Below, one piece after another: positions 37,314 to 59,334 of a DNA stretch of 64,000 nt. Source of the DNA: Candidatus Amesbacteria bacterium GW2011_GWB1_47_19 (GTDB lineage: Bacteria > Patescibacteriota > Microgenomatia > CAZETR01 > Amesbacteraceae). The translations under genes and the position numbers were made by a program. Under the pieces are notes generated by a model. That model made no database searches. It was not told the origin of the DNA and saw only the letters and a program-made list of their open reading frames with translations. Position 1 is the stretch's first letter. Every line of letters starts with the position of its first letter. The DNA is taken from the NCBI GenBank assembly GCA_001002325.1, contig LCNZ01000001.1, positions 67,773 to 131,772 on the forward strand. The letters are read 5' to 3'.

Positions 37314-37903
37314 AGTTTTTGAACTTTCTCCGTTTGCTCTTCTATACCGCCAGATGAACCCTCCGGAACCGGTAAAGGCTGAAAGCGATGATATATGGGT
37401 TCCTGAAAAACCCCATAAACGGAAATAACATATTCAGTATTGTAGGTCCAGGAAGGTTTGGGGGCTACGTAGAGGGTTCTTTTATCCTGGCTGACCTGGG
37501 CGTTTACCGGCTGAAAAGGGGAAACAAAGACACGAATCGAGGTAAGGTTGATTTCCTGATCAAAAGTAAAAGCCAAAGCCATTTCGGGAAAAGCAAGCTT
37601 GGGTTGAGCGTCGGGGGGATAAATTTGCACCAATTTGGGGTCGGGAGTTGGATATTGGGTGGTGTTGGGTTGGATTATGACCGGAGGCGGGGGCGGGGGA
37701 GTAGGGGAGGAGATTTGCAGATAGAGATAAACGAGTGAAATAAGGGACAAAACGCACAATCCCAGAAGAATTTTTTTAGATTTAGGAGAAAAGCGCGAAA
37801 ACATGAATTTAATTACAGAAATAATTTTCCGGTTTGACCCAAATACCTCCAATAGATACCTCCATATGTAAATGGGTAAAGCCCATAGGATAAAGAGTAG
37901 CAA
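37310..37903 (-). CDS. membrane-anchored Pro-rich protein, hypothetical
   Basis: TM (ILLGLCVLSLISLVYLYL), a poly-Pro run and a beta-rich C-terminus. The start probably lies at an internal Met because the ORF overlaps its upstream neighbour. Confidence 0.35.
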   Translation of the reverse strand: MLLFILWALPIYIWRYLLEVFGSNRKIISVIKFMFSRFSPKSKKILLGLCVLSLISLVYLYLQISSPTPPPPPPVIIQPNTTQYPTPDPKLVQIYPPDAQPKLAFPEMALAFTFDQEINLTSIRVFVSPFQPVNAQVSQDKRTLYVAPKPSWTYNTEYVISVYGVFQEPIYHRFQPLPVPEGSSGGIEEQTEKVQKL

Positions 37904-40900
37904 TAATAGTTCCAGAGGGAAGATTGGTGCCAGTAGAGTATGAACCCGAGATGTGAGTTAACACTATTCTTACATTACCAGAAACATAATGTGCCCTGTA
38001 ACCAGAGCCAGCAGGATTGGCCTTACCCCAAGAAAAATTCCAGCGGACGGATTGACCATTGAGAAGGGGAAGTTTGACGTCAGCAACCCCACCACTTGGT
38101 GCTTTGACATCCATAGCATATCCGTAATAAGGACAACGGCTGGCAACGCCGGAGCAGACACTGGGGACACCTATGCTTGGACCGTAGCAGCCTGGCGCGT
38201 CTTGAGGGAGGGCCCATTTACAGGGCGTCCAACCTTGCCAGTAGGGGGTACTACCATGCCCAGTATCGTTAGAAGAGTTGTAAGAATAGTAAGTTATTAT
38301 TCCATCGTCTATGGGACAACTCGAGGGATCCCCCCAACCACCCCCCCCCCCCCCCCCCCCCCCACCGACACCACTATCGTCACCGGCAAAGAAGAAGGAA
38401 AGCGGGGTGGCGGGGATGACATAAGCGCCGGAGTTGATGATGAAGACAACAAAAGTAACAATGATCGGGATTACCAGGACGGTGATGACTATGGGTAAAA
38501 CACTAACGCCGGCTATGACTGTGACCACACCTGTAATTATTGAACCGCCGGTAGAAGCAATTTGCTGAAGAGATTGGACTCCCGGACCGGTGCCGGTAAA
38601 GAATGACTGGAAGGCGGAGCCAACAAAACCGCCGACACCAGTGGCTGCCAAGGAGCCGGTAATAGAAAGTCCGGCAAGCTGGGCACCAATAAGGCCGATG
38701 ATGGCACCAATAATCATGGGAGCGTTTTCTTTGATTTTTTTGGCGAGTTTTTTAATGACCCCCCAAGTGACATCTAATACTAGACCAACGACAAACGCGG
38801 CAACGTTTCCGATAACAGGAACTGTCGATCCGACAGCCTGAAGAGCTAAATGAAAGCCGAGCTTTATGGCGATTTTTTTAGCAATGGAAGTGACAGTCTT
38901 ACCAATTACAGTCTTGGCTAATTTTCCCCAAGCGGCTTTGGCGATACTTTTTACGGGGGAGAGGACCCTGTTGCCGATAATGGTGTAGCGGTGACCGGCA
39001 AGCCAGGAAGATCCTGTGGCACTTCGAACAGCGCCAGTAATGCCCGACTTAGTGAGAGAGAGGGAAATCTGTTTGCCAATTGTCGAGGAGAAGAACTGGC
39101 GACCGAGGGGGGAGGCGGAGAAACGCTCCAAAACCTCCAACACCCGGGGGTGGAGCAGGTCGCGGGGTTTTTGGCTGACGAATTTAAGCAGGTCGGAGAA
39201 TGGTCCGGGCAAATTGAGAGACCCCAAATGGGATTGGAGATGGAATGCCTGGGGAGGACCGAACTGGCGGAACAGGTTGGAAAACAATACTTGGGGATTC
39301 AGGTTCTGCAGATTGAGTCCAGAGGTTTGGGAGGGCTGTTTTGAGCGAAGAAGTTCTACGGACAAGGGAAACAATTGCTGAAAGGCTTGATTTTGGACAG
39401 AGAAAAGTTTGTCCGCGGGAGTGGAAGGGGCGCCGGCAAATCCAGCAAGAAAATAACCGGCCTTTACGAATGGGACCGACTGTTTGGACAGAATCTTGGC
39501 GATGGGTGAAGGCAGGCCGCCCATACGGAGCTGGTGATACAGATATTGAGCAGCCGCAGCATCGTCTTTGAGTTTGTAATTGAACATGGTGAAGTGTTCC
39601 CCGAGGTCCCTGAGAAGTATTTCCGGAGAACTTACTTTGTTGGCTTCCAATTTTGGAAGGAAGGTGAGCTGAAGATAGCGGGAGACTTCCTGGGGAGTGG
39701 CATCGGGACGGTAGAGTTTGAAGAGAAGAAGGTGGTCGGACAGTTCCGCGGCAAGCTGGGGGGTGACATTGGCCCGAGTTAATCTGGTGGAGACAACTAA
39801 ATGGAAAGAGGCCAGTTCAGGGTGGAGGGAGAGAAGTGCCGGAATAGCTGGAGACAGAACAGAAAAAGCTTGCGCCAGAGACATCCTGCCGCCTGAGGAG
39901 GAGAGGATTAGGTCAACAGCCGCGGGAATGGTGGTAGCAGGAGAAGCCGCCAGGTGGGTGGTCAGGAGAGGTTGTAAGGCAAACAGGATTCTGGATTCCG
40001 GATAATGGCTCGGAAGAGTAGAAAAAGAGGAAGATAAAGAGGATTTGATAGCCAGGAGATTCTCCGGAGATCCGGGAATATCGGAGAGATTGAGAGCCGA
40101 GGTCGAATGTAAATACTGAACAAGAGGCGAGCGCAGGTCCCGTAGAACCGGCGGGGCATGGGGATCAAAAATTTGTGCGATCTGGGAAATTGATTCAACG
40201 TACTCACTTGGAATGTAAGTGGAGGCGGAGGCGGAAAAAATTCTAGTAATATGGTCGGGTAACGAGGCGGGATTTGTGCCGAGAAGGGGAAATAGCTGAT
40301 TGAGAATTTGAGAGGCCTCATTCGGCGCCAGGGGGGCTGTAGACAGGATTTGGGAGGCAGCTGCAAGAAAATGTACCGGAGCGTAGGTTTGACTGAAAGT
40401 TTGGTGGGATGAGGAGGCGAGTACGGAGGCAATCTGTGGGGAAAAACCGGAAGATTTAAAGGCGTTTTCCAGCTCAACTAGGGTGGCAGTGGGGTGCGAT
40501 GTAAGGGTGGAATGGAGAGTAATGTGGGCAGAGACAATTTGTTCCGGAGTCAGCTTGAGTTTAGGTGAGAGGGAGAGAAGGGTGGATTGGGCAGCGGACA
40601 AGGAGGAGGATAATATTTCTGTGGCTTGGGGAGGGAGATTGGCGGCAGAGGTATATGCTGCAAAGATATGACTGGATAGGAACTCTGATTTTTGCGCAGA
40701 AATACCCGCGGTACGGAGCCTGGCGGTGATAATCTGGGGGGTTAAGATAGAGAGGGGGGTATCGGATAACAGATCGCGCAGCGCGGATGAAGCCTGGGTG
40801 GTTTGAGATGGCGAAAGATTAAGTTGGGATGAGAAGGAATGAATTACATCCAATGCTGAAGTTTGAGCAATTGAGACAGCCGGCGGGGCAATGAGGGCAG

Positions 40901-41249
40901 ACTGATACGCCTGTGAAAGGCCGGTAGAAAGGGCGGAAATCTGGGGGGAGGTAAGACGCGCAGTGGAGGGAAGCTTCTCAATAAGAGAACGGACGGCCTC
41001 GGGGGAAGATTGGGACGCCAGAGCAGGAAAAACCGATTGAAAAACGGCTTGGGTCTGGGCGGAAGAAAGTTTGAGAGACACAGAAAGTTCTGATAACGTG
41101 TCATTGGCGGCTACAAGTGCAAACGGAGATACGGAAATTCCGGCAGGGGTCAGGATGACGGCGGGAGCAATTAAGGCCGAACGGAAAGAAGAGTGGGAGG
41201 ATTTGGCAACGACGGCAGCCTGGGAAGAAGACAGACCGGCCCGGGCCAC
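37809..41249 (-). CDS. giant low-complexity surface/membrane protein with C-terminal M23/LytM-like (possibly degenerate) peptidoglycan hydrolase domain; T4SS-associated
   Basis: About 800 aa of S/A/L/Q-rich low-complexity sequence, then a cluster of TM helices, a Gly run encoded by a 23-nt homopolymer, and a Cys-rich region. The C-terminus (GYRAHYVSGNVRIVLTH...GFTHLHMEVSIGGIWVKPENY) aligns with the M23 peptidase at 10975 (GYGNMVVITH...GPHLHLEILENGRTVNP). YAMD stands in for HxGxD. Confidence 0.5.
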   Translation of the reverse strand: MARAGLSSSQAAVVAKSSHSSFRSALIAPAVILTPAGISVSPFALVAANDTLSELSVSLKLSSAQTQAVFQSVFPALASQSSPEAVRSLIEKLPSTARLTSPQISALSTGLSQAYQSALIAPPAVSIAQTSALDVIHSFSSQLNLSPSQTTQASSALRDLLSDTPLSILTPQIITARLRTAGISAQKSEFLSSHIFAAYTSAANLPPQATEILSSSLSAAQSTLLSLSPKLKLTPEQIVSAHITLHSTLTSHPTATLVELENAFKSSGFSPQIASVLASSSHQTFSQTYAPVHFLAAASQILSTAPLAPNEASQILNQLFPLLGTNPASLPDHITRIFSASASTYIPSEYVESISQIAQIFDPHAPPVLRDLRSPLVQYLHSTSALNLSDIPGSPENLLAIKSSLSSSFSTLPSHYPESRILFALQPLLTTHLAASPATTIPAAVDLILSSSGGRMSLAQAFSVLSPAIPALLSLHPELASFHLVVSTRLTRANVTPQLAAELSDHLLLFKLYRPDATPQEVSRYLQLTFLPKLEANKVSSPEILLRDLGEHFTMFNYKLKDDAAAAQYLYHQLRMGGLPSPIAKILSKQSVPFVKAGYFLAGFAGAPSTPADKLFSVQNQAFQQLFPLSVELLRSKQPSQTSGLNLQNLNPQVLFSNLFRQFGPPQAFHLQSHLGSLNLPGPFSDLLKFVSQKPRDLLHPRVLEVLERFSASPLGRQFFSSTIGKQISLSLTKSGITGAVRSATGSSWLAGHRYTIIGNRVLSPVKSIAKAAWGKLAKTVIGKTVTSIAKKIAIKLGFHLALQAVGSTVPVIGNVAAFVVGLVLDVTWGVIKKLAKKIKENAPMIIGAIIGLIGAQLAGLSITGSLAATGVGGFVGSAFQSFFTGTGPGVQSLQQIASTGGSIITGVVTVIAGVSVLPIVITVLVIPIIVTFVVFIINSGAYVIPATPLSFFFAGDDSGVGGGGGGGGGGWGDPSSCPIDDGIITYYSYNSSNDTGHGSTPYWQGWTPCKWALPQDAPGCYGPSIGVPSVCSGVASRCPYYGYAMDVKAPSGGVADVKLPLLNGQSVRWNFSWGKANPAGSGYRAHYVSGNVRIVLTHISGSYSTGTNLPSGTIIATLYPMGFTHLHMEVSIGGIWVKPENYFCN
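38341..38363. repeat. homopolymeric C23 (G23 on the coding strand) tract inside the giant surface-protein gene
   Basis: Counted directly: 23 consecutive C. On the minus strand it encodes the Gly run in ...DDSGVGGGGGGGGGGWGDP. Confidence 0.85.
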
Positions 41250-41588
41250 CAGATGTCGGGCTGGGAGGCAAAAGTGCGGGAGACAGTATCGCGGACAGAA
41301 GAGACGATGTTTTCAGGCAGCTTGAGGGAGTCGGAGGAAGCCAGAACGGCACCCTGGGCAGCGGCGGCGGCGACGGAGACCCGGGCGGGAGCAGCGGAGA
41401 GAGACTTCTCAAGGCGGGGAACAAGAGTCCTGACGGAATCGGCGGAAAGGCCGGCGGAACTTAAGGCCGAGGAAAGATCGGAGGCGGAAAGCTGAGGTCC
41501 CTGGGCAGCAATGACCTTATCGACCGCAGCAGCAACGGCAGCGGTATCTTTGGCAGACAAACCCAGATCGGAGAGAGCGGCAGGCAAG

Positions 41589-42500
41589 TCAGACCTGAGA
41601 ACGGCGGCGACAACGGCGGGAGCAGCGGCGGCAACCGGGGGAAGGATGACGGCGGGAGCAATTAACGGAAGCTAAATTTTGAGATAAACTAGATACAGCA
41701 GCAGTGGCAGCTTGAGTATCATCTGAAGGCAAATTAATCTGAGGTATAAGGGTAGTGAGACGGGAATAAAATTGGTCAGGGGTAGCTTGAGGGTGAATAA
41801 GTTTCTCCACAAAGAGGACATTTGCGAGATTGTCTGAAGCTGAATCAGTGAGATGGATAGGTGAAACCACCGATGAGCGGATTGATTGACGCAACTCTTT
41901 GAGATTGGGATAAATAAAAGTGAGAGTATCGGCAAGGGGGGCAATAAGATTGGTTATTGACTGGGAGGGCAACACAAATTCCAAAGTTCTGGCCAAATCG
42001 GGCAGAGGAACGCTTTCAGGATTGGTAGCCACCCGGCGGTAAATAGTGGGCTCGACTACATCATTGAAAAATTCTGCCGCGACTTTGCCCTGAGGGCTAC
42101 GTTGAGCGACCGACCGACTGATCATTTCCAACTGGGATAGCATTTTGTCGTGGACCGTGGGGTTTTTGTGCCGGATTTTCTCCGCTTCCTGTTCCCGGAG
42201 CCTGAGGTGATTTTCATAATCATCAACTAAAGTCTTGAGAATGCCGTACATGGAGTCGATTTTTTCCTGAGAGAGTTCAAGCAGCGCCAGATTCAAAGCC
42301 AGCAGGGGTTCTTCATCTTTTTTAATTAATTTGAGTCTTTCAAAGGGGAGAATTTGTTCAACGACAGACCAGATTTTTATTTCCACGGAAGCAGGTGTTT
42401 CTCCTGGGGGAATTTCAGGAGGAATAAGAGATAGGCTGTAAATTAATTTCTGAAGACGGACCAGTTGCTGAGTCTTGGTTGAGGTATAGACGTCAGGCAT
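41589..42500 (-). CDS. T4SS-cluster protein, hypothetical (coiled-coil/low-complexity), translationally coupled to VirB4
   Basis: Its start overlaps the VirB4 stop by 8 nt. The last approximately 25 aa (CSRRHPSPGCRRCSRRCRRRSQV) look out of frame. The coding appears to continue in the 41171..41587 ORF and then into 37809..41249. Confidence 0.35.
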   Translation of the reverse strand: MPDVYTSTKTQQLVRLQKLIYSLSLIPPEIPPGETPASVEIKIWSVVEQILPFERLKLIKKDEEPLLALNLALLELSQEKIDSMYGILKTLVDDYENHLRLREQEAEKIRHKNPTVHDKMLSQLEMISRSVAQRSPQGKVAAEFFNDVVEPTIYRRVATNPESVPLPDLARTLEFVLPSQSITNLIAPLADTLTFIYPNLKELRQSIRSSVVSPIHLTDSASDNLANVLFVEKLIHPQATPDQFYSRLTTLIPQINLPSDDTQAATAAVSSLSQNLASVNCSRRHPSPGCRRCSRRCRRRSQV

Positions 42501-44331
42501 GAGGTTTCTCCTGGTCGGTAATTAACCGCATGGCGGCTGCTTTCTGGGCTAATAACTCCGAGGGTTTGGTAGTGACAAGCTGGTGTTCGTCGGGGGAGGC
42601 GACAAAGCGGACGGCAACATGGTTATTGCCGGCAAAAAACAGGCCTTCACCGACGTTGGCGGAGAGCAGAAGATGTTTTTCCCCCTCGGAAAGATAAAAA
42701 ACCTGGGCGATTCGATCAACAGCCGCGGGAGACTGCTTCATGAGGATCTGGATGGATGAATTGGTGACGATGGCTTTGCCAAAATCAGTATTTAAGAAAT
42801 CTTCCACATCCTGAGTAATGGTGGTTAATCCGAGGAAGTATTTACGGGCGCGTTTGGCAATTCCGTAGAGGAAATTGGCCGAATCGGGATAGCGCATGAG
42901 ATACCAGGCTTCGTCAACCACCAGGATCCTTTTTTTGAGATCGCGGCGCATCTTGGTCCAGATATAATCGAGAATAATAAAAATGGCAATAGGTTTGAGT
43001 GAATCTTCAAGGTCACGAACAGAAAAAACAGTGAAAGGATTTTTGAGAGCGACGTTACTGGGCTGATCAATAATGCCTGTAAAACTACCTTTGACGAATT
43101 TTTCCAGACGATCCGCCAGTGAAGCAGCCTGGGGTTCTTCCATACCTATGAAAGCCTTGTATAGATCCTCCATGAGGGGGGGGACTTTTCTCTGAGTGAC
43201 CGGATCGGTGGTGATGCCTTTCATACGGTAAGACAGATTTAATGCCCGGTCCAAAAGAGCTTCCTCAGTGGGGTTGAGGGCACCCATGATGACCTTGAAA
43301 AGCGAATGCAGTGACTGAATCTTGAGGTTGAGTTCATTTTCTTCGGAGGTGTCGGTGAGGGCAGATAAATCGAAGGGATTAATGCGGTTTTGGGAGTTGT
43401 AAGCAAAATTTATATAATCCCCACCAACCACGTCACACAGAGGCTTGTATTCGTTTTCGGGGTCGATAACAATTACTTCCGTGCCGAACATGAGAGAACG
43501 AAGAATTTCCAGTTTGATGGCGTAAGACTTGCCTGCCCCGGCCTTGGCAAAAACGACGGTGTTGGCGTTTTCCAATGTGAACCGGTCGAAAATAATCAGG
43601 CTGCCGTTGTGTTCATTAATTCCATAGAGAACCCCTTCGTTTGAGGTAAGCTCGGAAGAAGTAAACGGGAAAGTAGTGGCCAGAGAGGTGGTATCCATAT
43701 TGCGGGTGACCATAAGGTGGTCAATACAGGTCGGGAGGGTGGTTTTGAAACCCTCGCCCTGTTCCAGGACGGTGGGAATTGAAGAAAGCAGAAGTGAAGA
43801 CAGAGTACTGCTGACCTGCTTGCTGGTGGTTTCCAATTCCGATGCCGATTCGGCGGGGATGGTGACATAAAGCGAAAACTGAAAAAAGCGTTCGATACCT
43901 TTGACCAGCTGATCCTGGAGAGACAGGGCGTCTTCGAGCTTTGCCTGGGTACCGGGATCGACAACCCGACCACGCTGCATGTCAGTGCTGAGTTCGGCTT
44001 CCATTTCAGCGATTTTGCGGCGGAGGTCATCCAGGGTAGATTTGCTTTCCACGGGATAGACGAACATGGAAATATTAAGAGAATGATCAAAATTGATTAG
44101 CTGAGAGAGCCAGTTGGCATCCACAAACCGGCGGTTGATGGTGGTGAAAAAGGAACGGTAGTAATACTCATTTATTTTGAGAAGATTAAAATCTATCGAA
44201 ATTTGCTGGGGGGCGATAATGTCCTGAACTGTTTTGGCCAGGGACAGAGTTTTGGTAACAGGTCCGGAGGAAGGAGTGGGGGCAGGGTGGGTTACGGTAT
44301 CAGATGATGGTCTTTTTTTGAAAAGCGGCAT
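42493..44331 (-). CDS. type IV secretion system VirB4/TrbE/CagE-family ATPase, ATPase portion
   Basis: Walker A VVFAKAGAGKSYAIK, a Walker B-like ILVVDEAWYL, and the AAA-like/DUF87 layout typical of monoderm VirB4 proteins (PrgJ/TcpF-like). Confidence 0.8.
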   Translation of the reverse strand: MPLFKKRPSSDTVTHPAPTPSSGPVTKTLSLAKTVQDIIAPQQISIDFNLLKINEYYYRSFFTTINRRFVDANWLSQLINFDHSLNISMFVYPVESKSTLDDLRRKIAEMEAELSTDMQRGRVVDPGTQAKLEDALSLQDQLVKGIERFFQFSLYVTIPAESASELETTSKQVSSTLSSLLLSSIPTVLEQGEGFKTTLPTCIDHLMVTRNMDTTSLATTFPFTSSELTSNEGVLYGINEHNGSLIIFDRFTLENANTVVFAKAGAGKSYAIKLEILRSLMFGTEVIVIDPENEYKPLCDVVGGDYINFAYNSQNRINPFDLSALTDTSEENELNLKIQSLHSLFKVIMGALNPTEEALLDRALNLSYRMKGITTDPVTQRKVPPLMEDLYKAFIGMEEPQAASLADRLEKFVKGSFTGIIDQPSNVALKNPFTVFSVRDLEDSLKPIAIFIILDYIWTKMRRDLKKRILVVDEAWYLMRYPDSANFLYGIAKRARKYFLGLTTITQDVEDFLNTDFGKAIVTNSSIQILMKQSPAAVDRIAQVFYLSEGEKHLLLSANVGEGLFFAGNNHVAVRFVASPDEHQLVTTKPSELLAQKAAAMRLITDQEKPHA

Positions 44332-44332
44332 G

Positions 44333-44965
44333 TCAGGTTTCAGTGGGTTTTGGCAAAATAACTCTACTACCTAAAAGATCGGGATTGTAGTAGTCGAAAA
44401 ACAGCTGAAGAAGTTCCTGGGAATTGAGCTGGCGGGCCCGCAAGCCGATACGAGCCAGAAGACGGAGAAGATGATCGCGTTTTGGAGCCAGATTGGTGGC
44501 TGCGCGATCGAAAATGTCCGCTTTGGCCAGGGGCAAACCTTTTTTCCGGGGGCCGAGGGCGCCCATGGCGGAACTAAAACCCAATTCCATTGAGCTGAAA
44601 GGAATGGAAATAAAGAATTTTTTGTCCAATACATTACCCTGACGGACAATGGCTTTGATGAAATCCCGGTATTTGGTGAGCTGCGTACGGATTTTGGGGG
44701 CAGAAGTTTTGGCCAGACGCTCTTCCAGTTTCTGCAGGTAATCGGATATATCCTTACGTTTGGAAGAAATAACTATCTGGATGGAAAAAGTCAGAGAATT
44801 TAAAAGTTGGGCGTAGGCATACATGGTGGCTTCCTGCTCTTTTTCGGAAAAAAGCCCGAAGTTGATGGCGCCGACCTCGAGAATCAGGCAGGCGGAACCG
44901 TCTTTTAATAAGACCAGATCGTTCTGAATATCTTCAATGTCCAGATGATCACGGGTAAGGTTCAT
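44333..44965 (-). CDS. VirB4-like N-terminal domain (separate ORF)
   Basis: LVLLKDGSACLILEVGAINFGLFSEKEQEATMYAYAQLLNSL resembles the VirB4/TrbE N-terminal region. It ends 2 nt before the ATPase ORF begins, in a different frame. Confidence 0.55.
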   Translation of the reverse strand: MNLTRDHLDIEDIQNDLVLLKDGSACLILEVGAINFGLFSEKEQEATMYAYAQLLNSLTFSIQIVISSKRKDISDYLQKLEERLAKTSAPKIRTQLTKYRDFIKAIVRQGNVLDKKFFISIPFSSMELGFSSAMGALGPRKKGLPLAKADIFDRAATNLAPKRDHLLRLLARIGLRARQLNSQELLQLFFDYYNPDLLGSRVILPKPTET

Positions 44966-44983
44966 AGTTAGAGTATAAGGTTG

Positions 44984-46039
44984 TCAGGCATTTTGGGGTT
45001 GGGCAGTGATAACGATGGGTGGGATAAGGGAATTGGCGACTTTGATGGAAACAGGGGGAAAATTGAAACCGTCTTTTTCGGAATTGATGACGTATGAGCC
45101 GGAGGGGAGGGGAATGGCAATCTGGAATTGGCCGAGACGATTGGTACGCAGAGCCCGGGCAGGGATGCCCGTCTGAGAATCGAGAATTTCCAGGGTGACA
45201 CCGGACATGGGTGAACCGGCGGAATCGTTGATCTGGCCGGAAAGAATATTCGGTTGGGTGGGAGCAGTGACAGCGGAAGTGAGTGTGGCCTGAGGTGCGG
45301 GGGGAGGGGGAGTGATAGTAGGCCGGGGGCCGGGTCCGGTCAGGGGAATATTGGGAAGAGGAGGCAGGGGCGAAACCACGGAGGAGGCGGAAGGGGCAGC
45401 TTTGGCTGGAAGAGGGGAGATAACCGGTTCCGGGACAGCAGCTTCGGCCGGGGCAGTGACCGGTGAGATTTGGGGCGGAGGGGTAAATGCGTGATATGCG
45501 GTTTGGGTGGGGGAATCCGGGGTGGCGGGACTTTGAACCCGGGCGGTACCGGGGAAGGTGGACGGAAGAGTGACCGGAGTCGGGGCAGTCGGGAACGGAG
45601 ATTCGGCGGGAGGGGGAGAAATAACGGGGGATGGTTCGGGCGCTGGTTCGGGGGCGAGGGAGGTGACAAATGAAGTGAAACTAGTAGCGGGAGATAGTGG
45701 GGCAGCAGGTGGAGGGGCGGCCGGAATTCGGGGAACAGTTTTAGTTGAAGGGGGGGAAGGGGCCCAGACAAATTCCGTGGGTGAATAAATAGCTTTCATA
45801 AAAGCGGAAATCCATTTGGCGAAAGGCCGGCCATTGATGGGAAGAAAGGCCATCGCAGCACCCATGACGGCGCAAATAAAGACAGCGGGGTATTTGATGA
45901 TGACCGGCAAGGGGGTGCGGAAGATCAGAAAGGCCATGACCAGGCCACCAGCCAAGTAGAGAAACTGCTTAAGGGTCATGTCCCCGACCAGGCGGAATTC
46001 GTAAGAAGAAATGTTTTGCGGGACAGGATGTTGTTCCAT
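44984..46039 (-). CDS. VirB3-like two-TM protein with Pro/Ala-rich linker and C-terminal Ig-like (CarboxypepD_reg-like) domain
   Basis: N-terminus has two adjacent hydrophobic helices (LYLAGGLVMAFLIF / AVFICAVMGAAMAFLPI) and sits directly upstream of VirB4, as in monoderm T4SS. C-terminus SGQINDSAGSPMSGVTLEILD...GSYVINSEKDGF. Confidence 0.45.
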   Translation of the reverse strand: MEQHPVPQNISSYEFRLVGDMTLKQFLYLAGGLVMAFLIFRTPLPVIIKYPAVFICAVMGAAMAFLPINGRPFAKWISAFMKAIYSPTEFVWAPSPPSTKTVPRIPAAPPPAAPLSPATSFTSFVTSLAPEPAPEPSPVISPPPAESPFPTAPTPVTLPSTFPGTARVQSPATPDSPTQTAYHAFTPPPQISPVTAPAEAAVPEPVISPLPAKAAPSASSVVSPLPPLPNIPLTGPGPRPTITPPPPAPQATLTSAVTAPTQPNILSGQINDSAGSPMSGVTLEILDSQTGIPARALRTNRLGQFQIAIPLPSGSYVINSEKDGFNFPPVSIKVANSLIPPIVITAQPQNA

Positions 46040-46214
46040 AAGGACTTAGGGTTGATTGATTATATCTGAAATATCTATTGCGACAGATTCGGTTCTATTA
46101 TCACTCTAACCTGTGAAGGCTTGAATGCAAGCTATTTTTTTCACAGACCGATATATTGACATATCCTATAGTTGCTAAATCATGATAGAATACGGTGTTA
46201 TATACTAGAGATAT

Positions 46215-50258: not shown

Positions 50259-50285
50259 TAAATGATTGTATATAGTTTGGCAAGG

Positions 50286-53180: not shown

Positions 53181-53530
53181 ATGGAAAAATTTGTAAAATT
53201 AACGCCCAGAAATTTTCCGGCGAGGCTAAGGATTATCCAGGCGGAAAGCGATACCATCAAACCCAACACGGAATAAGTGATGGTGGATTGGGCACGGGCA
53301 GCGGATTCCTTGTTAGCTCCAGCCGATAGAAACTGGAAACCGCCGATGATCAACATGATCAGGGAGGCGGTTGCGACAAGAGTGAGAAGGGAAGCGAGGA
53401 CCCGACTGAAAACCGTTTCCAGTCCGGTGATTCGGGCGGGAGGGGCAGGGGTAGCGGCGGAAACCTGAGGCACATAGAGTATAAGAGTGGAAGAGTAGAA
53501 GAGTAGAAGTTTTAATTTGGCTTTGGACAT
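53159..53530 (-). CDS. T4SS pilin-like protein (VirB2/TrbC topology), paralog 1
   Basis: Signal peptide, hydrophobic helix 1, a short polar loop (SAGANKESAARAQ) and hydrophobic helix 2. It is a paralog of the eight downstream genes. Confidence 0.55.
   Translation of the reverse strand: MSKAKLKLLLFYSSTLILYVPQVSAATPAPPARITGLETVFSRVLASLLTLVATASLIMLIIGGFQFLSAGANKESAARAQSTITYSVLGLMVSLSAWIILSLAGKFLGVNFTNFSICIISGC
53470..53515. repeat. purine-rich 8-mer repeat (AGTAGAAG)n encoding the pilin paralog 1 signal peptide
   Basis: tataagagtggaagagtagaagagtagaagttttaatttggc. The reverse complement encodes MSKAKLKLLLFYSSTLIL. Confidence 0.75.
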
Positions 53531-53594
53531 ACGAATATATTAGCACAAAAATCACCCCCGGAATCCGGGGGTGATTTCGCCTAACGCCAGGCTT

Positions 53595-53978
53595 TTAGAT
53601 GTTGTTCAGGTTGAGACTGATAACATCGACGTTAAAGAGGACGCGGATGATGTAAAGAAGGGCGTAGGCCGAGAAAACCACAGCCAAGCCGATAAGGGCG
53701 TTGGTGATTTTTTTCCTGGCCTTTTCCGTACCTTCCTTGTCACCTCCGGCGAGAATCCACTGAATACCTCCCCACAAAAGGAAGATAAATGCGGCAATAC
53801 CGGCTGCGCCCAAGAGAATATTGATGGCTGCCGTGACGTACCTGGTAGGAGTGATATTGGCGATATACGGGTACTTGGTTGAGTTGATGGAGACGTTTTC
53901 TCCGGTGACGGCCAATACACGGCCAGGAAGAGCGGCAGCTCCGGTCAGTACGAGAGCTACTTTTTGTGTTTTACTCAT
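53595..53978 (-). CDS. T4SS pilin-like protein, paralog 2
   Basis: LLGAAGIAAFIFLLWGGIQWILAGGDKEGTEKARKKITNALIGLAVVFSAYALLYII is a two-helix hairpin with the conserved AGGDK loop. Confidence 0.6.
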   Translation of the reverse strand: MSKTQKVALVLTGAAALPGRVLAVTGENVSINSTKYPYIANITPTRYVTAAINILLGAAGIAAFIFLLWGGIQWILAGGDKEGTEKARKKITNALIGLAVVFSAYALLYIIRVLFNVDVISLNLNNI

Positions 53979-54047
53979 GCATTACGTCACCACCTTTCGA
54001 GTTGTGGGTTGAGTTTACCATATCTGACGGTTTGAGGAAATCCGAAT

Positions 54048-54437
54048 TCAAATGGTGTTAAGGTTGACGTAGAAGGAGTTTATGTTGAATAAAATCCGAA
54101 CAATGGTGATAAGTGCGTAGGAAGAAAGGACAATGGACAAGCCTACCAAAGCGTGGAGGATGCGTTTGCGGGCCCGCTCAATGCCTTCTTTATCTCCCCC
54201 GGACATGATCCACTGAATACCTCCAACAAGAAGGTAGATAAAGGCAATGATACCGGCGGCACCAAGAAACAGATTAATCCCTGAGGTAACCAGACGCCGG
54301 GGAGTAATGGTGTAGAGTTTGTTGTAGGGAGAGGCGGGATCAATGAGATTGACGTCGGCAGCGGAAGCATGAGAGGAGAAGAGTGTAAGACTAGATGAGT
54401 ATAAGAGAATTAGCGTGTGGAGGAATCTTTTCTTCAT
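54048..54437 (-). CDS. T4SS pilin-like protein, paralog 3
   Basis: LGAAGIIAFIYLLVGGIQWIMSGGDKEGIERARKRILHALVGLSIVLSSYALITIV is about 70% identical to paralog 2 over the core. Confidence 0.6.
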   Translation of the reverse strand: MKKRFLHTLILLYSSSLTLFSSHASAADVNLIDPASPYNKLYTITPRRLVTSGINLFLGAAGIIAFIYLLVGGIQWIMSGGDKEGIERARKRILHALVGLSIVLSSYALITIVRILFNINSFYVNLNTI

Positions 54438-54438
54438 A

Positions 54439-54792
54439 TCAGGGGGCGGGAATGTTAAACTTGCGGATATCGACTCCGAATAGCACTTCTACTACGTAGA
54501 GAAAAGCAAAGGCGGAAAATACGATAATAATTCCAATAAAGGCGTTGGTAAGGCGTTTTTGGGCTTTCTGAACAGCCTCTTTATCACCTCCGGCATTTAT
54601 GTATTCATAACCACCACGCAGGAGCATGATAAAAAAGTAAACACCGGCGAAACCAAAGGCGACATTGATCAGATTCCTGAGCATAAGTGAAAGAGCAGCG
54701 CGGCTATTTAAGGTGGTTGAATTGCCTAATTTTCCGTTAAGGGGGGGGTTGTAGAGGCTCTGTGCGAGTAGGGAGAGGACAGGCATAATCAT
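54439..54792 (-). CDS. T4SS pilin-like protein, paralog 4
   Basis: FGFAGVYFFIMLLRGGYEYINAGGDKEAVQKAQKRLTNAFIGIIIVFSAF. Confidence 0.6.
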   Translation of the reverse strand: MIMPVLSLLAQSLYNPPLNGKLGNSTTLNSRAALSLMLRNLINVAFGFAGVYFFIMLLRGGYEYINAGGDKEAVQKAQKRLTNAFIGIIIVFSAFAFLYVVEVLFGVDIRKFNIPAP

Positions 54793-55226
54793 GGTCTTAA
54801 ACCCAGAAGTAAAAAGCCGAATCTGAGGATGGGTATACCCAGGAAATACCCGATTACCCCGGTAATGGTAAAAGCCATTACAACGACGAGTAAACCCATA
54901 AAGGCGTTTGTAAGTCGTTTTTGGGCGTCCTGTACTGCCTGTTTGTCGCCTCCGGCATTAATCCACTTATAGCCAGCCATAAAAATCTGAAACAGGAAGT
55001 ATACTCCGGCAATTACTGTCATGAGACCAATGATGTTGGATATAAAATTTGTAAGCTGAGTGGCAGTCTGGGAGGAGGGGGTATTGGGATTGCCCAAAGG
55101 ACCAATGCCGTTGATGGTCCCCAAGTTGATACTGGAAGCAAGTAGTTTGGTGTAAAGGGTGGTCATTTCAAGGGCCCCAGATTCTGGGACGGAACAGAAT
55201 ATAAGCGTTGGTAGGACCGAAGACAA
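54789..55226 (-). CDS. T4SS pilin-like protein, paralog 5
   Basis: VIAGVYFLFQIFMAGYKWINAGGDKQAVQDAQKRLTNAFMGLLVVVMAF. The true start is probably the internal Met at about 55166, 2 nt from the end of paralog 6. Confidence 0.55.
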   Translation of the reverse strand: MSSVLPTLIFCSVPESGALEMTTLYTKLLASSINLGTINGIGPLGNPNTPSSQTATQLTNFISNIIGLMTVIAGVYFLFQIFMAGYKWINAGGDKQAVQDAQKRLTNAFMGLLVVVMAFTITGVIGYFLGIPILRFGFLLLGLRP

Positions 55227-55518
55227 TATATCCTATAGCCCAAGCTATGAGGAATGAAGCGGCAATGATAACCAATCCGAGAACCGACTGCCAGATTTTT
55301 TCCCAAGCCCTGGCGATATTTTTGGGTTCGCTGCCGGCGGTTAAAAAACCCCAGCCGGCCATGATGATATTGAAAAAAGCATAGACGCCTGCAAGGACAA
55401 TCATAAGCTTGACGAGATTGCTGACAAGAACAATAAGCCCCTGGCCTTGGGCGCCGGTATATCTTCCGGGCGAAAGAACTGAAAAAGGGCTGTTAATGCT
55501 GCCAAAGATGCCAAACAT
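55168..55518 (-). CDS. T4SS pilin-like protein, paralog 6
   Basis: LAGVYAFFNIIMAGWGFLTAGSEPKNIARAWEKIWQSVLGLVIIAASFLIAW is a divergent copy. Confidence 0.5.
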   Translation of the reverse strand: MFGIFGSINSPFSVLSPGRYTGAQGQGLIVLVSNLVKLMIVLAGVYAFFNIIMAGWGFLTAGSEPKNIARAWEKIWQSVLGLVIIAASFLIAWAIGYIVFGPTNAYILFRPRIWGP

Positions 55519-55522
55519 ATGA

Positions 55523-55882
55523 TCAGGTGACGGGTGGATTCATGAAATTAATTCCGGTAACTACTGTCAGTATCTGAAGTATAAAATATGAGGCGATGAC
55601 TAGCAAGAAGCCGAATAGAGCCGAGTTCAAAATACCGCGTTTTTTTGCCAATTCACGGGCATCATCCGGACTACCTCTCTGGAAACGGCCGGACATGACA
55701 ATCATGTTGAAGCCATAATAGATGATAATCAGGAAAAAGATGACAGCGGCGATGACCATGATATTGGGGAGGAGAGTGGAGATTAATGAACCGGGGGTAG
55801 CGGCGACATTTTTTGCTCCGGGGTGAGGTCCGAAAAATGTTCCCGGGATATTGACAACAGCAATGGGGGGAGAAGTGTTCAT
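55523..55882 (-). CDS. T4SS pilin-like protein, paralog 7
   Basis: VIAAVIFFLIIIYYGFNMIVMSG...ARELAKKRGILNSALFGFLLVIASYFIL is a divergent copy with the same two-helix layout. Confidence 0.5.
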   Translation of the reverse strand: MNTSPPIAVVNIPGTFFGPHPGAKNVAATPGSLISTLLPNIMVIAAVIFFLIIIYYGFNMIVMSGRFQRGSPDDARELAKKRGILNSALFGFLLVIASYFILQILTVVTGINFMNPPVT

Positions 55883-56184
55883 AGAAATAGAATACCAAAT
55901 ACGAAACGGATAACTTGGCCGAGGAAATAAGCACTTAATACAAGCAGCAGGCCGATTAAGGCGTTGAGCATGGTTTTTTGGGAGGCCTGGACCTTGCCGG
56001 GATCACCCAGTGCAGTGAGTGAAGTAAAGGCGGCAATTATAAAGCGGATCAGAAAATAGAAACCGGCGATAGCGATGGCATATAACAGGATGCGGGAAGT
56101 GAGTGTACCCACGAAAGTTACAGAGCTACGGAAGATGGTGGAAGGGCCGGGGATGCCGGAAATCTGGGCAATGGGAGGCTGCAT
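55879..56184 (-). CDS. T4SS pilin-like protein, paralog 8
   Basis: AIAGFYFLIRFIIAAFTSLTALGDPGKVQASQKTMLNALIGLLLVLSAYFL. Confidence 0.55.
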   Translation of the reverse strand: MQPPIAQISGIPGPSTIFRSSVTFVGTLTSRILLYAIAIAGFYFLIRFIIAAFTSLTALGDPGKVQASQKTMLNALIGLLLVLSAYFLGQVIRFVFGILFL

Positions 56185-56190
56185 ATTTGA

Positions 56191-56715
56191 TTAAGGATTA
56201 AAGCCTAATCCTCCAAGGCCGAGGATCTGGACGCCGATAAAATTTAGGATAACAACAGCCATGACGATCAGGGCCAGGGCACCCAGTACATTGACGATTA
56301 TTTCCTGACCAGCCTTGATGCGTTTGGGGTCACCGGCGGCAGTGGCCATAAGAAAACCAGCGTAGACAATGAAAATGAAGGCAATACCACCTCCAACGCC
56401 TACTGCCCAGCGGATGATCTGGTCAATCAGAAGTTTCGGATTTGAAGTTTGGAGACAACCGAGGGCGGTTTTGATGCCTGAATTAGAGTTGGTGGGATTA
56501 CAAAAGCGCGGGTCATTTATGGGGGAGGACCCACTATTTTTGCAACATTTCCACAAAGCAGGACATGTTCCGGCAAGGCTGCCATACCAGCACCTCATAC
56601 CTATTAGTGCGCAGTGACCCCCAGCTTCTTCACAGGTGGCTGCACGGGAGAGGGAGGGAAGGAAGAGAGAAATAAAAATTAAAGAGGCGAGAGAAAGGAT
56701 GAGTTTAGCGGACAT
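56191..56715 (-). CDS. T4SS pilin-like protein with N-terminal Cys-rich extension, paralog 9 (first gene of array)
   Basis: Signal peptide, a Cys-rich segment (CEEAGGHCALIGMRCWYGSLAGTCPALWKCC), then the pilin-like core GGIAFIFIVYAGFLMATAAGDPKRIKAGQEIIVNVLGALALIVMAV. Confidence 0.5.
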   Translation of the reverse strand: MSAKLILSLASLIFISLFLPSLSRAATCEEAGGHCALIGMRCWYGSLAGTCPALWKCCKNSGSSPINDPRFCNPTNSNSGIKTALGCLQTSNPKLLIDQIIRWAVGVGGGIAFIFIVYAGFLMATAAGDPKRIKAGQEIIVNVLGALALIVMAVVILNFIGVQILGLGGLGFNP

Positions 56716-56769
56716 GGATCAAATTGAGTTTAGCATAGAGTGGAATACATTTGTTAGAATTTTAAAGCG

Positions 56770-58539
56770 ATGAGAAATAAAATATTCTGGCTGGGACTGG
56801 CGGTCCTGGTACTTTGGGGAAGTACGAAAGTTAAAGCGGAGGAATGCGATAACCCCGGGAGTCTGACGGATCCGGTGGTGATAGCCCAATGCATAGGTAA
56901 ATACAACGGGATACTGGATGCAATAGCCAAAGCGAATTCGACGAACAGGCAGGCTTTACAGGCAGTGCAGGCACAGATAGGGAGACTGCAGGCACAAATA
57001 AAGCTGCTGGAAATCCAGGTGGACAAGTTGGGGAAGGATGTTTTTGAGCGGGAGGTAACTGTGGGAGTGAAGGAGGAATTACTGGCGGCCAAAGTCCGGA
57101 CAGATTACGTGCGAAAGAAAGACCAGGGAGTACTGCTGATGTTTTTTTCCGAAAACAGAGCGGGTGTGTTTTTCCGAGATCTGGCTTACAGAGAAAAACT
57201 TGCCCGGATGGACCAGGAAACAATTATCGCTGTGGGAAAGGAAATTAGTGACCTCAAGTCGCAAGCCGCAAGGCTCAAATCACAAAAGGACAGCCTGGGG
57301 AGTTTGAAAGTAAAGGTGGACAAGCAGGCAGCTTTTCTGGCGGCGGAAGTGGAGAAGGCGAGCAAGTATGAGGTGGATCTGGGAGGGAAAATATCGGCGC
57401 TGACAGCGCGACAACAGCAGCTGTTGGCTGAAAAAACCGGAACTTATGCGACTTCGGTGGGAGATGTACCGCTGGCGGATGATCCGGCAGCCAGGCCCGA
57501 TTACAATCCGGGTTTTTCACCGGCTTTTGCGGTATTTTCATTCGGCGCGCCGCATTTTAAAGGAATGAGCCAGTACGGAGCGTTCGGAAGAGCCAAGAAC
57601 GGACAGAATTACAGGCAGATACTGGAAGCGTATTACGGCCAGGTGGAGATAAGGAAAGTTAATGTGCCGGGAACAATCAGAACATCAGCGGGGAATATGG
57701 CGTTTGAAGGCAGATATTTGCGGGGAATCGCGGAAATGCCGACGGTGTGGGCGGACCAGGGGGGATATGAAGCGTTGAAAGCCCAGGCAGTAGCGGCCAG
57801 AAGTTACGCACTGGCTTATACCGGGTGGCGGATGGGAAGCCAAAACGCCTCCGGCAGTATTTGCGTGACCGAGGCCTGCCAGGTTTTTCGAAGCAGTAAA
57901 GCGGATAACCCGGGGCGATGGGGGGATGCAGTGAGAGAAACAGACAGTGAGATAGTGGTGAGTAAAACATCCGGTGAAATAGTGAATACCTGGTATGCCA
58001 GCACATCAGGAGGTTACCAGAAAGGCTATTCCGGACTGGGACACACAACACCGGGATTTTGGGATACGACATCCGATTGGACAAGGTGGGCGGAGGGAGC
58101 GTGGGAAGTAAAAGGCGGGTCTCCATGGTTTTATAAGGGATGGTATAAATCCCGAAGCGGAAAAACCTGCGGCAGAAATCATCCGTGGCTGACAACAGCC
58201 GAGTTTGCGGATATCACGAACGCGGCGATTGTGGTGGCCAACGGGGGAGATACCAGCGGAATATTTCCGGAAGATGTACGCAGCTGCTGGGGGGACGGGG
58301 ATAATCCCTGGTCCAAGTCCAGACTGGCTGAGGAAGCCGGCAAACACGGAGGAGCGGTAAACCAAGTATCCGGAATAAGAGTAGAGCATGCCAGTTCCGG
58401 GGGAACCGATAAAGTAATCCTCTCTACAAACAGGGGGGAAGTGGTTATTTCCGGAGCGAATTTTTACCGGGCGTTTAATCTACGGGCTCCCGGAGCTTTA
58501 GCTTTGAAATCGTACCTGTTTAATGTTGAGAAGAAGTGA
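56770..58539 (+). CDS. SpoIID/LytB-domain protein with N-terminal signal peptide and coiled-coil region (peptidoglycan remodelling)
   Basis: A long coiled coil (QAVQAQIGRLQAQIKLLEIQVDKL...) is followed by GRYLRGIAEMPTVWADQGGYEALKAQAVAARSYAL, which matches the SpoIID/LytB block (EMP..W..EALKAQAVAARTYA). Confidence 0.7.
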   Translation: MRNKIFWLGLAVLVLWGSTKVKAEECDNPGSLTDPVVIAQCIGKYNGILDAIAKANSTNRQALQAVQAQIGRLQAQIKLLEIQVDKLGKDVFEREVTVGVKEELLAAKVRTDYVRKKDQGVLLMFFSENRAGVFFRDLAYREKLARMDQETIIAVGKEISDLKSQAARLKSQKDSLGSLKVKVDKQAAFLAAEVEKASKYEVDLGGKISALTARQQQLLAEKTGTYATSVGDVPLADDPAARPDYNPGFSPAFAVFSFGAPHFKGMSQYGAFGRAKNGQNYRQILEAYYGQVEIRKVNVPGTIRTSAGNMAFEGRYLRGIAEMPTVWADQGGYEALKAQAVAARSYALAYTGWRMGSQNASGSICVTEACQVFRSSKADNPGRWGDAVRETDSEIVVSKTSGEIVNTWYASTSGGYQKGYSGLGHTTPGFWDTTSDWTRWAEGAWEVKGGSPWFYKGWYKSRSGKTCGRNHPWLTTAEFADITNAAIVVANGGDTSGIFPEDVRSCWGDGDNPWSKSRLAEEAGKHGGAVNQVSGIRVEHASSGGTDKVILSTNRGEVVISGANFYRAFNLRAPGALALKSYLFNVEKK

Positions 58540-58599
58540 TTGTTATTAGTTATTAGTTGTTCGTTGATCGTAAGAATCGGGTGGGGATGGTAAAATTCA

Positions 58600-59334
58600 G
58601 TGATGCCGGATGTGTATACGGCCAGAAAAACCGGAGAGCCGGAACCACCAATACCAACAGTACCCTTGCCGGTAAGGGAAGAAGCTATAGGAAAGGTGCT
58701 GGAGCCATTGTCCGAGGAAAGAAGCCCTGATTACTGGAGGAAGATTACAGACCGAGTGTTACGGGAGGCGGGGGAGTCTCCCCGCAGAGTGGTGTATGGG
58801 GCGTATCACGTGAGGCCGCGCGAGAGGTTTATTATGCAGCAACAGGATGAGGAGATAGTGCTCCTGCTGCGGGCACACCCGATTACCAATGCAGGATGGA
58901 TGGTAATGGTATTGGTGATGCTTATAATCCCTTCACTGCTATCGGTAATCGGGATATTCGGCGGGGTAGACTGGAGATTTGTATTTATGGGGAAAATGGC
59001 CTGGTACCTGGTGATTACAGCCGTGGCTTTTGAGAAGTTTCTGTACTGGTACTACACCTTGTTTTTGGTGACCAATGAACGGCTGGTGGATATTGATTTT
59101 AATAATCTGCTGCAGAGAGTTATGACGTATGCCAATCTGAACCATATTGAGGAGCCGACGATGATGACCGGGGGATTTATCCGGTCCCTTTTTCAGTACG
59201 GGGATGTGCATATTACCACGGCGTCAGAAGCGCCGACTATCGAGGCGCTGGCTGTACCCTGGCCGCATAAAGTGATTGATATTATCAGTCGGTTATCCGA
59301 GGAGCTGGAAAAAAGAAGGGAGAGGGGGGAGTAG
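58600..59334 (+). CDS. bPH_2 (YdbT/DUF304-like) membrane protein
   Basis: Two TM helices followed by a PH-like YLVITAVAFEKFLYWYYTLFLVTNERLVDIDF. Its N-terminus MMPDVYTARKT resembles MPDVYTSTKT of ORF 41589..42500. Confidence 0.45.
   Translation: MMPDVYTARKTGEPEPPIPTVPLPVREEAIGKVLEPLSEERSPDYWRKITDRVLREAGESPRRVVYGAYHVRPRERFIMQQQDEEIVLLLRAHPITNAGWMVMVLVMLIIPSLLSVIGIFGGVDWRFVFMGKMAWYLVITAVAFEKFLYWYYTLFLVTNERLVDIDFNNLLQRVMTYANLNHIEEPTMMTGGFIRSLFQYGDVHITTASEAPTIEALAVPWPHKVIDIISRLSEELEKRRERGE

Follow-up and report, generated by a model that had tools for sequence, protein, structure and literature searches.

The 64,000-nucleotide stretch of Candidatus Amesbacteria bacterium GW2011_GWB1_47_19 analysed here (assembly GCA_001002325.1, contig LCNZ01000001.1, positions 67,773 to 131,772; hereafter the window) carries a block of genes, at window positions 37310-59334, that is probably a chromosomal type IV secretion system (T4SS) of the Patescibacteria clade in its Microgenomatia form. 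Most likely it derives from the CTn2/CD1110-type conjugation machinery of monoderm bacteria (MPF_FATA), is no longer conjugative, and serves parasitic growth on a host cell. A preliminary description of the same DNA had seen in it a surface-contact or secretion apparatus rather than a conjugative element. That reading is now supported by a monoderm-type VirB4, by synteny with the core chromosome, by searches that found no type IV coupling protein (T4CP) or relaxase in the window or in the related loci inspected, and by agreement with two published studies (PMC10633639, PMC12102498); its suggested fit to the epibiotic lifestyle of candidate phyla radiation (CPR) bacteria agrees with published essentiality in Southlakia (PMC10633639). 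All of the components then listed lie where they had been placed, and their match statistics leave no room for chance.

From 37.3 to 56.7 kb the genes form an unbroken minus-strand run that collides head-on with dnaN and dnaA. In order of transcription they encode nine pilins (56715 to 53159), a 964-residue Cys-rich protein, a 541-residue polytopic protein, a 351-residue PrgI protein, a 210-residue TrsD protein, the 612-residue ATPase, three open reading frames (ORFs) of 303, 138 and 1146 residues, and a small membrane protein. A gene of 802 codons lies on the opposite strand inside this run, preceding the PrgI gene in transcription order, and the genes for a SpoIID protein and a 244-residue membrane protein, both on the plus strand, diverge from the first pilin gene.

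As had been proposed from its Walker A motif GAGKS, the 612-residue protein (42493-44331, minus strand) is a VirB4-family ATPase, comprising the linker and C-terminal motor. It matches the Pfam families P-loop_TraG (2.2e-31), AAA_10 and DUF87, scores 367 bits against NCBIfam conju_CD1110 (cutoff 325), and aligns with the VirB4 structure in PDB entry 4ag5 (2.5e-52); the profile searches that had been proposed as a check on whether it falls outside VirB4 thus place it within that family. CD1110 is its best curated family, its identity to plasmid VirB4 proteins is 30-37% (30% to that of pCDC3875), and its closest relatives, at 59-84% identity, are all from Microgenomatia. On these scores we assign the window VirB4 to the monoderm CD1110 (MPF_FATA) family. 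The adjoining gene (44333-44965, minus strand) encodes 210 residues that match NCBIfam VirB4_plasma at positions 113-213 (5e-8), TrsD (4.3e-6) and CD1110 at positions 27-95 (1e-3), and an identical protein has a precomputed TraC-like Pfam match on record. Because the CD1110 match of the ATPase covers only profile positions 185-734, starting at 185, and because the 210-residue protein matches TrsD and N-terminal VirB4 regions, we conclude from the alignments that VirB4 is split here into two genes, a division already known in Patescibacteria, the TrsD-like protein being the detached N-terminal domain of the ATPase. Among the loci of relatives, which we designate by L-numbers (L085-L087 being other assemblies of the same organism), the TrsD domain is fused to VirB4 in L081 (794 residues) and separate in L082 and L083.

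The 351-residue protein (44984-46039, minus strand) is PrgI/VirB3-like, with two transmembrane helices, a Pro-rich linker and an extracellular β-sandwich resembling CarboxypepD_reg. Its Pfam matches are to PrgI (4.8e-9; 37.1 bits, cutoff 27) and CarboxypepD_reg (3.6e-7). It had been described as a VirB3-like protein directly upstream of VirB4; its family and its two transmembrane segments are borne out, but the trsD-like gene intervenes, so that prgI is the second gene upstream.

The polytopic protein (48633-50258, minus strand; 541 residues) has a signal or anchor helix followed by about seven transmembrane helices. It gives no Pfam or NCBIfam match, with nothing useful even at E <= 10, and all 849 homologues in its family are unannotated. 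Its AlphaFold2 model, built from 59 sequences, has a pLDDT (predicted local distance difference test) score of 76.7 overall and 85-97 in the transmembrane core. When this model is compared with the PDB by Foldseek, the five best matches are all TrwI/VirB6 of R388 (7o3v_F: probability 0.99, E 0.12, TM 0.50 on the target), and its gene occupies the virB6 slot of the CTn2-type order VirB6-PrgI-VirB4-hydrolase. Profile searches of the family against the PDB gave chance matches only, hhalign found no similarity to a bona fide CD1112 VirB6, and 31 orthologues scanned singly yielded one weak TrbL match (0.013) and none in NCBIfam. The earlier suggestion of a VirB6/TrbL-like protein therefore stands on fold, topology and position but finds no sequence signal to either family, and we regard the protein as VirB6-like, an assignment that is supported rather than proven.

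Between the virB6-like gene and prgI lies the antisense gene (46215-48623, plus strand), whose 802-residue product is charged and has no predicted transmembrane helix. Neither Pfam, NCBIfam nor the PDB gave a match to it, and its family profile found only chance matches in the PDB. An opposite-strand gene encoding 569-954 residues fills the same slot in L001 (6542-8251), L081 (11623-14184), L082 (11843-14707) and L083 (11600-13861); its place is conserved and its sequence poorly so, with 18-22% identity among the slot genes. The notion that this protein is a T4SS substrate with a charged C-terminal tail was dropped, since the orthologues share no such tail.

The nine small genes at 53159-56715, all on the minus strand and previously called pilin-like, all match PF18895 (T4SS_pilin), six above and three below its gathering score. 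They co-align over two hydrophobic helices and a conserved AGGDKE-type loop, with a mean pairwise identity of 25% and a maximum of 49%. Numbered against the direction of transcription, they are pilin 1 (53159-53530; 1.1e-6, 29.1 bits, above the cutoff, with two hydrophobic helices), pilin 2 (53595-53978; 4.6e-10), pilin 3 (54048-54437; 1.8e-6), which is 49% identical to pilin 2 and like it has a weak TrbC match, pilin 4 (54439-54792; 3.5e-9) and pilin 5 (54789-55226; 2.9e-8). The listed TTG start of pilin 5 overlaps pilin 6, and its true start is probably the ATG at ~55166. Pilin 6 (55168-55518; 3.5e-4) and pilin 7 (55523-55882; 0.01) fall below the cutoff and pilin 8 (55879-56184; 3.1e-5) just below it, and all three align with the other pilins. 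Pilin 9 (56191-56715; 6e-9), encoded by the first gene of the array, has a signal peptide and a Cys-rich N-terminal extension with 8 Cys in ~45 residues. The first pilin gene is likewise extended in L081 (1492-2343, 283 residues) and L082 (1712-2242, 176 residues), and the extended protein could be a specialised tip or minor pilin. Published pilin arrays of Patescibacteria hold 2-11 genes, with a mean identity of 25% and a maximum of 54%, especially in Microgenomatia and Saccharimonadia (PMC12102498).

The region after virB4 (37809-42500, minus strand) appears in the window as ORFs of 303 residues (41589-42500), 138 residues (41171-41587) and 1146 residues (37809-41249), the reading frame shifting 2->0->2 and the peptide LIAPAVIL recurring. 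Three other assemblies represent this organism and encode an identical VirB4; in one of them, GCA_003488165.1, a single ORF of 1424 residues overlaps the virB4 stop; the hydrolase of L001 is likewise a single ORF, of 1449 residues. Relative to GCA_003488165.1 the window is short of 8 nucleotides at ~41664 and 25 nucleotides at ~41251; the first of these gaps is 8 nucleotides in this comparison but 196 nucleotides against two of the other assemblies, and a poly-G tract at ~38355, encoding a Gly run, also differs in length between assemblies. Comparison with the three other assemblies leads us to reject three separate genes and to read the three ORFs as one gene of ~1,424 codons; the gaps are either assembly errors or strain variation. 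A 23-nucleotide direct repeat, TTAATTGCTCCCGCCGTCATCCT, occurs at ~41662 and ~41172 inside this repeat-rich gene.

The encoded protein, a candidate VirB1 analogue, has a long Ser/Ala/Leu-rich N-terminal part with no signal peptide, a cluster of four predicted transmembrane helices (~38436-38843), the Gly run and an extracellular M23/LytM-like domain (37812-38297). Pfam and NCBIfam searches with the 1146- and 303-residue proteins and their sub-domains gave nothing useful even at E <= 10. In the M23-like domain, however, one Asp and four His residues are invariant, two of the latter in an HxH-E motif; this HLH-E and a preceding catalytic His align with M23 structures. In the PDB its profile retrieves almost nothing but M23 peptidases (6muk at 9e-4, 8s3m, 3slu, 9gy1, SpoIIQ and ShyA), over the C-terminal half only, and hhalign relates it with 82% probability to the window's canonical M23 peptidase (10975-11721, plus strand; Pfam 6e-33), encoded 26 kb from the block. 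Orthologues give weak Pfam M23 matches and exchange terminal modules: the C-terminus may bear an added VanY or NAGPA domain or have CHAP in place of M23, and one Woesebacteria orthologue matches DnaJ (L001 14946-16178, L006 14769-15938, L058 12119-13387, L051 13900-14487 and L083 18004-20877). We conclude that the C-terminal domain is probably a divergent LytM-type domain on a modular, membrane-anchored protein predicted to be a wall hydrolase. The M23/LytM-like C-terminus first noticed on a 1146-residue surface protein is thus retained as a divergent M23-like domain, but that ORF is only the 3' part of the longer gene.

Two further proteins had been put forward as wall-remodelling factors, and for both the assignment is upheld. 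The secreted or anchored Cys-rich protein (50286-53180, minus strand; ~940-964 residues) had been noted for a Glu-Ser motif like that of soluble lytic transglycosylases; profile and fold comparisons assign to its C-terminal domain (50289-50810) the lysozyme-like fold of peptidoglycan glycosidases, in which a Glu is invariant and the Ser after it nearly so. The domain has the α fold with Glu at a helix end that is typical of the lysozyme-like superfamily (GH23 lytic transglycosylases and GH73 glucosaminidases). Homologues of this domain numbered none by single-sequence search, 6 by profile and 400 by exhaustive search of representative genomes. For the protein itself, Pfam and NCBIfam gave nothing useful even at E <= 10, and PDB profile searches with the lysozyme-like domain and with the full Cys-rich family gave chance matches only. 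Other assemblies call it at 930-946 residues, and the start of the 964-codon ORF probably lies later than listed. The SpoIID/LytB protein (56770-58539, plus strand) has a coiled-coil N-terminal part and matches Pfam SpoIID (2.4e-12) and TIGR02669 (94.9 bits, cutoff 83.3); its gene, divergent from the pilin array, occupies the same slot in L082 and L083.

Comparison with relatives shows that the block belongs to the conserved chromosomal core, which settles the question of core or accessory status that the preliminary description had left to comparative genomics: position and order are fixed across Microgenomatia. More than 500 relatives of the VirB4 emerged when species-representative genomes were scanned; the best 80 are 59-84% identical, and the credibly named records are of Amesbacteria, Woesebacteria, Shapirobacteria or Microgenomates. 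Many metagenome-assembled genome records with close VirB4 relatives (L001, L003, L007, L012 and others) bear such titles as 'uncultured Gammaproteobacteria', 'Pseudomonadales', 'Bathyarchaeia' or 'Methanoperedens'; evidently either the records are mislabelled or the contigs are mis-binned. Among relatives with enough flanking sequence to be counted, TrsD is present in 44/44 and PrgI in 44/44, upstream of VirB4 on the same strand; a VirB6-like gene lies upstream in 31/44, and 55/58 (~95%) have dnaN and dnaA downstream of virB4, nearly always in the opposite orientation. A gene of varying sequence and domains occupies the hydrolase slot after virB4 in every case. L081, L082 and L083 share essentially one order, namely SpoIID, pilin array, large protein in the Cys-rich slot, VirB6-like protein, large antisense gene, PrgI, TrsD, VirB4, hydrolase, small protein, dnaN; only L083 (Woesebacteria) spans it end to end, the Amesbacteria-like L081 and L082 holding most of it with the far ends not recovered. 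Small insertions, toxin-antitoxin genes among them, occur inside the blocks of these three relatives (AAA_14/DUF4143, HEPN or HepT with nucleotidyltransferase pairs, and 23S_rRNA_IVP), and the window has none of them.

In GC content the block roughly resembles the remainder of the window, and the strand bias runs on through it. Because Amesbacteria, Woesebacteria and Shapirobacteria keep the same gene order and the block abuts dnaN-dnaA in ~95% of relatives, we conclude that the block is part of the core chromosome and not a mobile element. An origin as an integrative and conjugative element (ICE) or plasmid is rejected, since synteny with dnaN and dnaA is conserved and no mobility genes were found in the window.

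Pfam scans of the window covered all ORFs of at least 300 residues judged to be genes and most smaller ones, with a few long ORFs antisense to annotated genes left out. They found no VirD4/TcpA-type T4CP, relaxase, integrase or VirB8-11 family, and so concur with the earlier failure to see VirD4, a relaxase or VirB8-11; the suggested search of the flanks found neither VirD4 nor a relaxase within the 64 kb. No relaxase or T4CP is present among the annotated genes of the related loci L081-L083 and L085-L087. Integration boundaries were also not found in the window, which has no integrase and no tRNA boundary, the only tRNA gene lying 29 kb away. Relaxases were found in only 103 of the surveyed Patescibacteria genomes (PMC12102498).

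We infer that these parts assemble into one machine. The two-piece VirB4 motor, made of the TrsD-like protein and the 612-residue ATPase, would dock on the membrane through PrgI/VirB3 and the highly diverged VirB6-like channel protein. The membrane-anchored M23-like endopeptidase and the lysozyme-like glycosidase domain of the Cys-rich protein, possibly with SpoIID, would open the wall locally, and VirB4 would drive the extraction of VirB2-like pilins, of which there are nine divergent paralogues, and their polymerisation into a tube or pilus in contact with the host. With no dedicated T4CP or relaxase, such a structure could be a conduit for uptake of host material, nucleic acids being the leading candidate, or could deliver factors independently of a T4CP. 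A preprint of June 2026 on the first cultured Microgenomatia, the parasite OT8, describes host-penetrating tubes, possibly T4SS pili, and acquisition of host RNA (bioRxiv 10.64898/2026.06.21.733656). We lean towards uptake of host macromolecules in view of what the organism needs, of the missing substrate receptor and of these OT8 observations.

A more specific version of this proposal, which we consider doubtful, is that the Microgenomatia T4SS is a distinct sub-architecture with lineage-specific core parts that carry no annotation to date: a VirB6-like protein of 520-610 residues, a secreted Cys-rich protein of 940-1300 residues with a lysozyme-like end, encoded between the pilins and virB6 and possibly standing in for VirB1/VirB5 at the base or tip of the pilus, the conserved antisense cytoplasmic protein, and a first pilin with a Cys-rich head. 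Together these would form a wall-piercing, inward-directed tube on the monoderm cell, through which host RNA or DNA, among other material, would enter with no coupling protein.

Several points weigh against a non-conjugative T4SS that serves growth on a host. The VirB6 assignment comes from fold and position only, with a Foldseek E of 0.12, and Pfam, NCBIfam and hhalign found no sequence-level match of the 541-residue protein to TrbL, VirB6 or CD1112. Nor did Pfam or NCBIfam match any block protein to a VirB8-like component of NTF2 fold, for which two proteins were also tested by structure; the small bitopic protein at 37310-37804 looks immunoglobulin-like (Big_5), not VirB8-like. In the M23-like domain G-Y-A-x-D stands where the canonical HxxxD would be, an invariant His lying 45 residues before it. 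Frameshifts interrupt the window's hydrolase gene behind virB4, and SpoIID may be a mere housekeeping neighbour. The genome may encode a T4CP at another site, as in many surveyed Patescibacteria, whose VirD4-like genes lie far from virB4 (PMC12102498). Finally, the OT8 tubes are only suggested to be T4SS pili (bioRxiv 10.64898/2026.06.21.733656).

The most serious rival to the favoured uptake, though on balance an unlikely one, is export of proteins independently of a T4CP, whereby effectors or toxins would be secreted or injected into the host and the system would not be an uptake conduit. Most characterised non-conjugative T4SSs do export proteins, Bordetella Ptl and Brucella VirB without a T4CP (PMC12102498, PMC12857230), and Wang et al. 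name protein export as one option (PMC10633639). The large secreted Cys-rich and hydrolase proteins of the block would also suit an exporter. Against this, the chief need of the organism is import of building blocks, and OT8 points to acquisition of host RNA (bioRxiv 10.64898/2026.06.21.733656). No candidate effector with a recognisable signal was found, the soluble 802-residue protein having no conserved C-terminal tail. The findings made here are compatible with either direction.

The VirB4/VirB6/PrgI core might instead build variable VirB2-like fibres for attachment or recognition of host range, a pilus-only adhesion organelle through which no substrate passes. VirB4 alone is the pilus-assembly ATPase in Gram-negative VirB/D4 systems, and the lack of a T4CP found here would fit such an organelle. 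The nine divergent pilins, with their mean identity of 25%, suggest surface variation or host adaptation (PMC12102498). This reading is nevertheless improbable, as Patescibacteria already adhere by type IV pili (PMC10633639, PMC12857230), the VirB6-like channel protein is well conserved (31/44 loci) and no relative leaves the hydrolase slot after virB4 empty, variable though its sequence and domains are.

An ordinary conjugative or mobilising T4SS whose T4CP and relaxase lie elsewhere in the genome, or a decayed ICE, can draw on the CD1110 family of VirB4, a gene order like that of the CTn2-type transfer module, the frequent distance between VirD4-like genes and virB4 in Patescibacteria (PMC12102498) and the one frameshifted gene, but is very unlikely given the dnaN/dnaA neighbourhood fixed in 55/58 relatives, an order kept across several candidate phylum-level lineages of Microgenomatia, the failure to find an integrase, relaxase, T4CP or tRNA boundary in the window, the roughly even GC content and unbroken strand bias, the rarity of relaxases (103 surveyed genomes; PMC12102498) and the absence of the frameshift from another assembly of the same organism.

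The favoured host-directed T4SS is flanked by housekeeping genes. On one side dnaA (34553-35965) and dnaN (36186-37313), both on the plus strand, converge on the block, the end of dnaN being 0.5 kb from the 37809 boundary; rnpA, yidC and jag lie just upstream of dnaA on the other strand. The last block gene, converging on dnaN, encodes the small membrane protein (37310-37804, minus strand) with a predicted transmembrane segment, a Pro-rich linker and a Big_5-like domain (1.3e-4; 23.1 bits, just under the cutoff of 23.6). Homologues occupy the same slot in L001, L003 and L005, the sibling assemblies L085-L087 call it at 164 residues, and in L083 the slot holds a 195-codon gene that corresponds by position. 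At the other end the 244-residue membrane protein (58600-59334, plus strand), directly downstream of SpoIID, has a weak bPH_2 match (3.9e-3, below the cutoff), and its part in the apparatus is uncertain; in L083 SpoIID is followed by a 232-codon gene in the same place, a likeness of position. The other neighbours in the window include TatD, glycosyltransferases, a P-type ATPase, GroEL, LeuRS, TsaC/D/E, L25, YidC, RnpA, DnaA, DnaN and SmpB.

Two further features of the window deserve mention. A free-standing ORF resembling LAGLIDADG homing endonucleases (7485-8204, minus strand) lies beside the window's only tRNA gene (tRNA-Cys, 8283-8357). Over the whole window (1-64000), four-fold degenerate third positions are very strongly biased towards purines on the plus strand, alike for genes of both strands, with GC4 skews of +0.43 and +0.46 and AT4 skews of +0.26 and +0.38 for genes on either strand. 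The skew does not change sign at the junction between rnpA-yidC-jag and dnaA-dnaN, where oriC would be expected, an observation relevant to the published proposal that gene dosage accounts for a T4SS position close to the origin.

Compared with the Gram-negative VirB/D4 systems (Agrobacterium VirB; R388 Trw), the window shares two-helix VirB2-like pilins, with weak TrbC/VirB2 matches, and a VirB6-like model that best matches TrwI. It differs in having no VirB5, no VirB7-11 and no outer-membrane core complex, in belonging to a monoderm envelope, in encoding nine pilins where those systems have one, and in the families of its hydrolases.

The Helicobacter ComB and crenarchaeal Ced systems, which are built on VirB4-type ATPases, move nucleic acid inward with no relaxase or T4CP. 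The window VirB4 matches CedB weakly (4.7e-10, 38.7 bits against a cutoff of 700) and is not a member of that family, and neither Pfam nor NCBIfam found ComB7-10 or CedA-like components. Import is established for ComB and Ced, whereas for the window system it is a hypothesis only.

The closest resemblance among conjugative systems is to the CTn2-type MPF_FATA modules (CD1110/CD1112/CD1115; C. botulinum pCDC3875). The order VirB6 - PrgI - (x) - VirB4 - large transmembrane-anchored hydrolase is common to both, the window VirB4 exceeding the CD1110 cutoff and being 30% identical to that of pCDC3875, and the hydrolase slot that follows virB4 in monoderm systems is filled in the window by the M23-like protein. 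In contrast to these modules, the window encodes neither VirD4 (CD1115) nor a relaxase and offers no plasmid or ICE setting, its VirB4 is split, and its VirB6-like protein is twice as long as CD1112 with no sequence similarity to it. The nine-gene array of VirB2-like pilins also sets it apart from monoderm conjugative systems, which have no such array (PMC12102498, PMC10633639, PMC12857230).

The system to which the block belongs is the Patescibacteria-clade T4SS, known from Southlakia epibionticum (SEML1_0006-0019) and from a survey of the whole phylum (PMC12102498). Wang et al. (2023) found the homologous Southlakia cluster, including its pilins, essential for epibiotic growth and described it as Gram-positive-like with no recognisable T4CP or relaxase (PMC10633639). 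Quinonero-Coronel et al. (2025) described a VirB4 clade sister to MPF_FATA, with TrsD by VirB4, PrgI, VirB6, rare relaxases and a location near dnaA/dnaN/rnpA (PMC12102498), and a 2025 review speculates that the pilus is a conduit for uptake or exchange (PMC12857230). The window shares with these systems the MPF_FATA-related VirB4 with adjacent TrsD, PrgI/VirB3 and a VirB6-like protein, the tandem divergent PF18895 pilins, the hydrolases by virB4, the lack of a relaxase or T4CP in the cluster and the chromosomal location near dnaA/dnaN. It is the Microgenomatia version, in which the hydrolase domains belong to divergent families missed by Pfam and a conserved antisense gene lies inside the block. 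Whereas the survey found VirB6 'scarce' in Microgenomatia and PrgI mostly unlinked to virB4 (PMC12102498), lineage-specific queries and the fold model place both PrgI and the VirB6-like protein adjacent to virB4.

We conclude that the block is an already described Patescibacteria T4SS, every interpretive point being in print in papers from 2023 to 2026. The additions made here are small: PrgI and VirB6-like proteins adjacent to virB4 in Microgenomatia that are too diverged for the survey profiles, and two unannotated domain families that we predict to be wall hydrolases. The window is not a new kind of system but a clean and complete Microgenomatia example of this one, its order over ~20 kb fixed beside dnaN. 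The T4SS is thought to be central to the life of ultrasmall CPR bacteria on other cells, is essential in the one genetically tractable species and may form the tubes between a cultured Microgenomatia parasite and its host, and these annotations could help in the design of genetics or cryo-electron tomography on cultured Microgenomatia.

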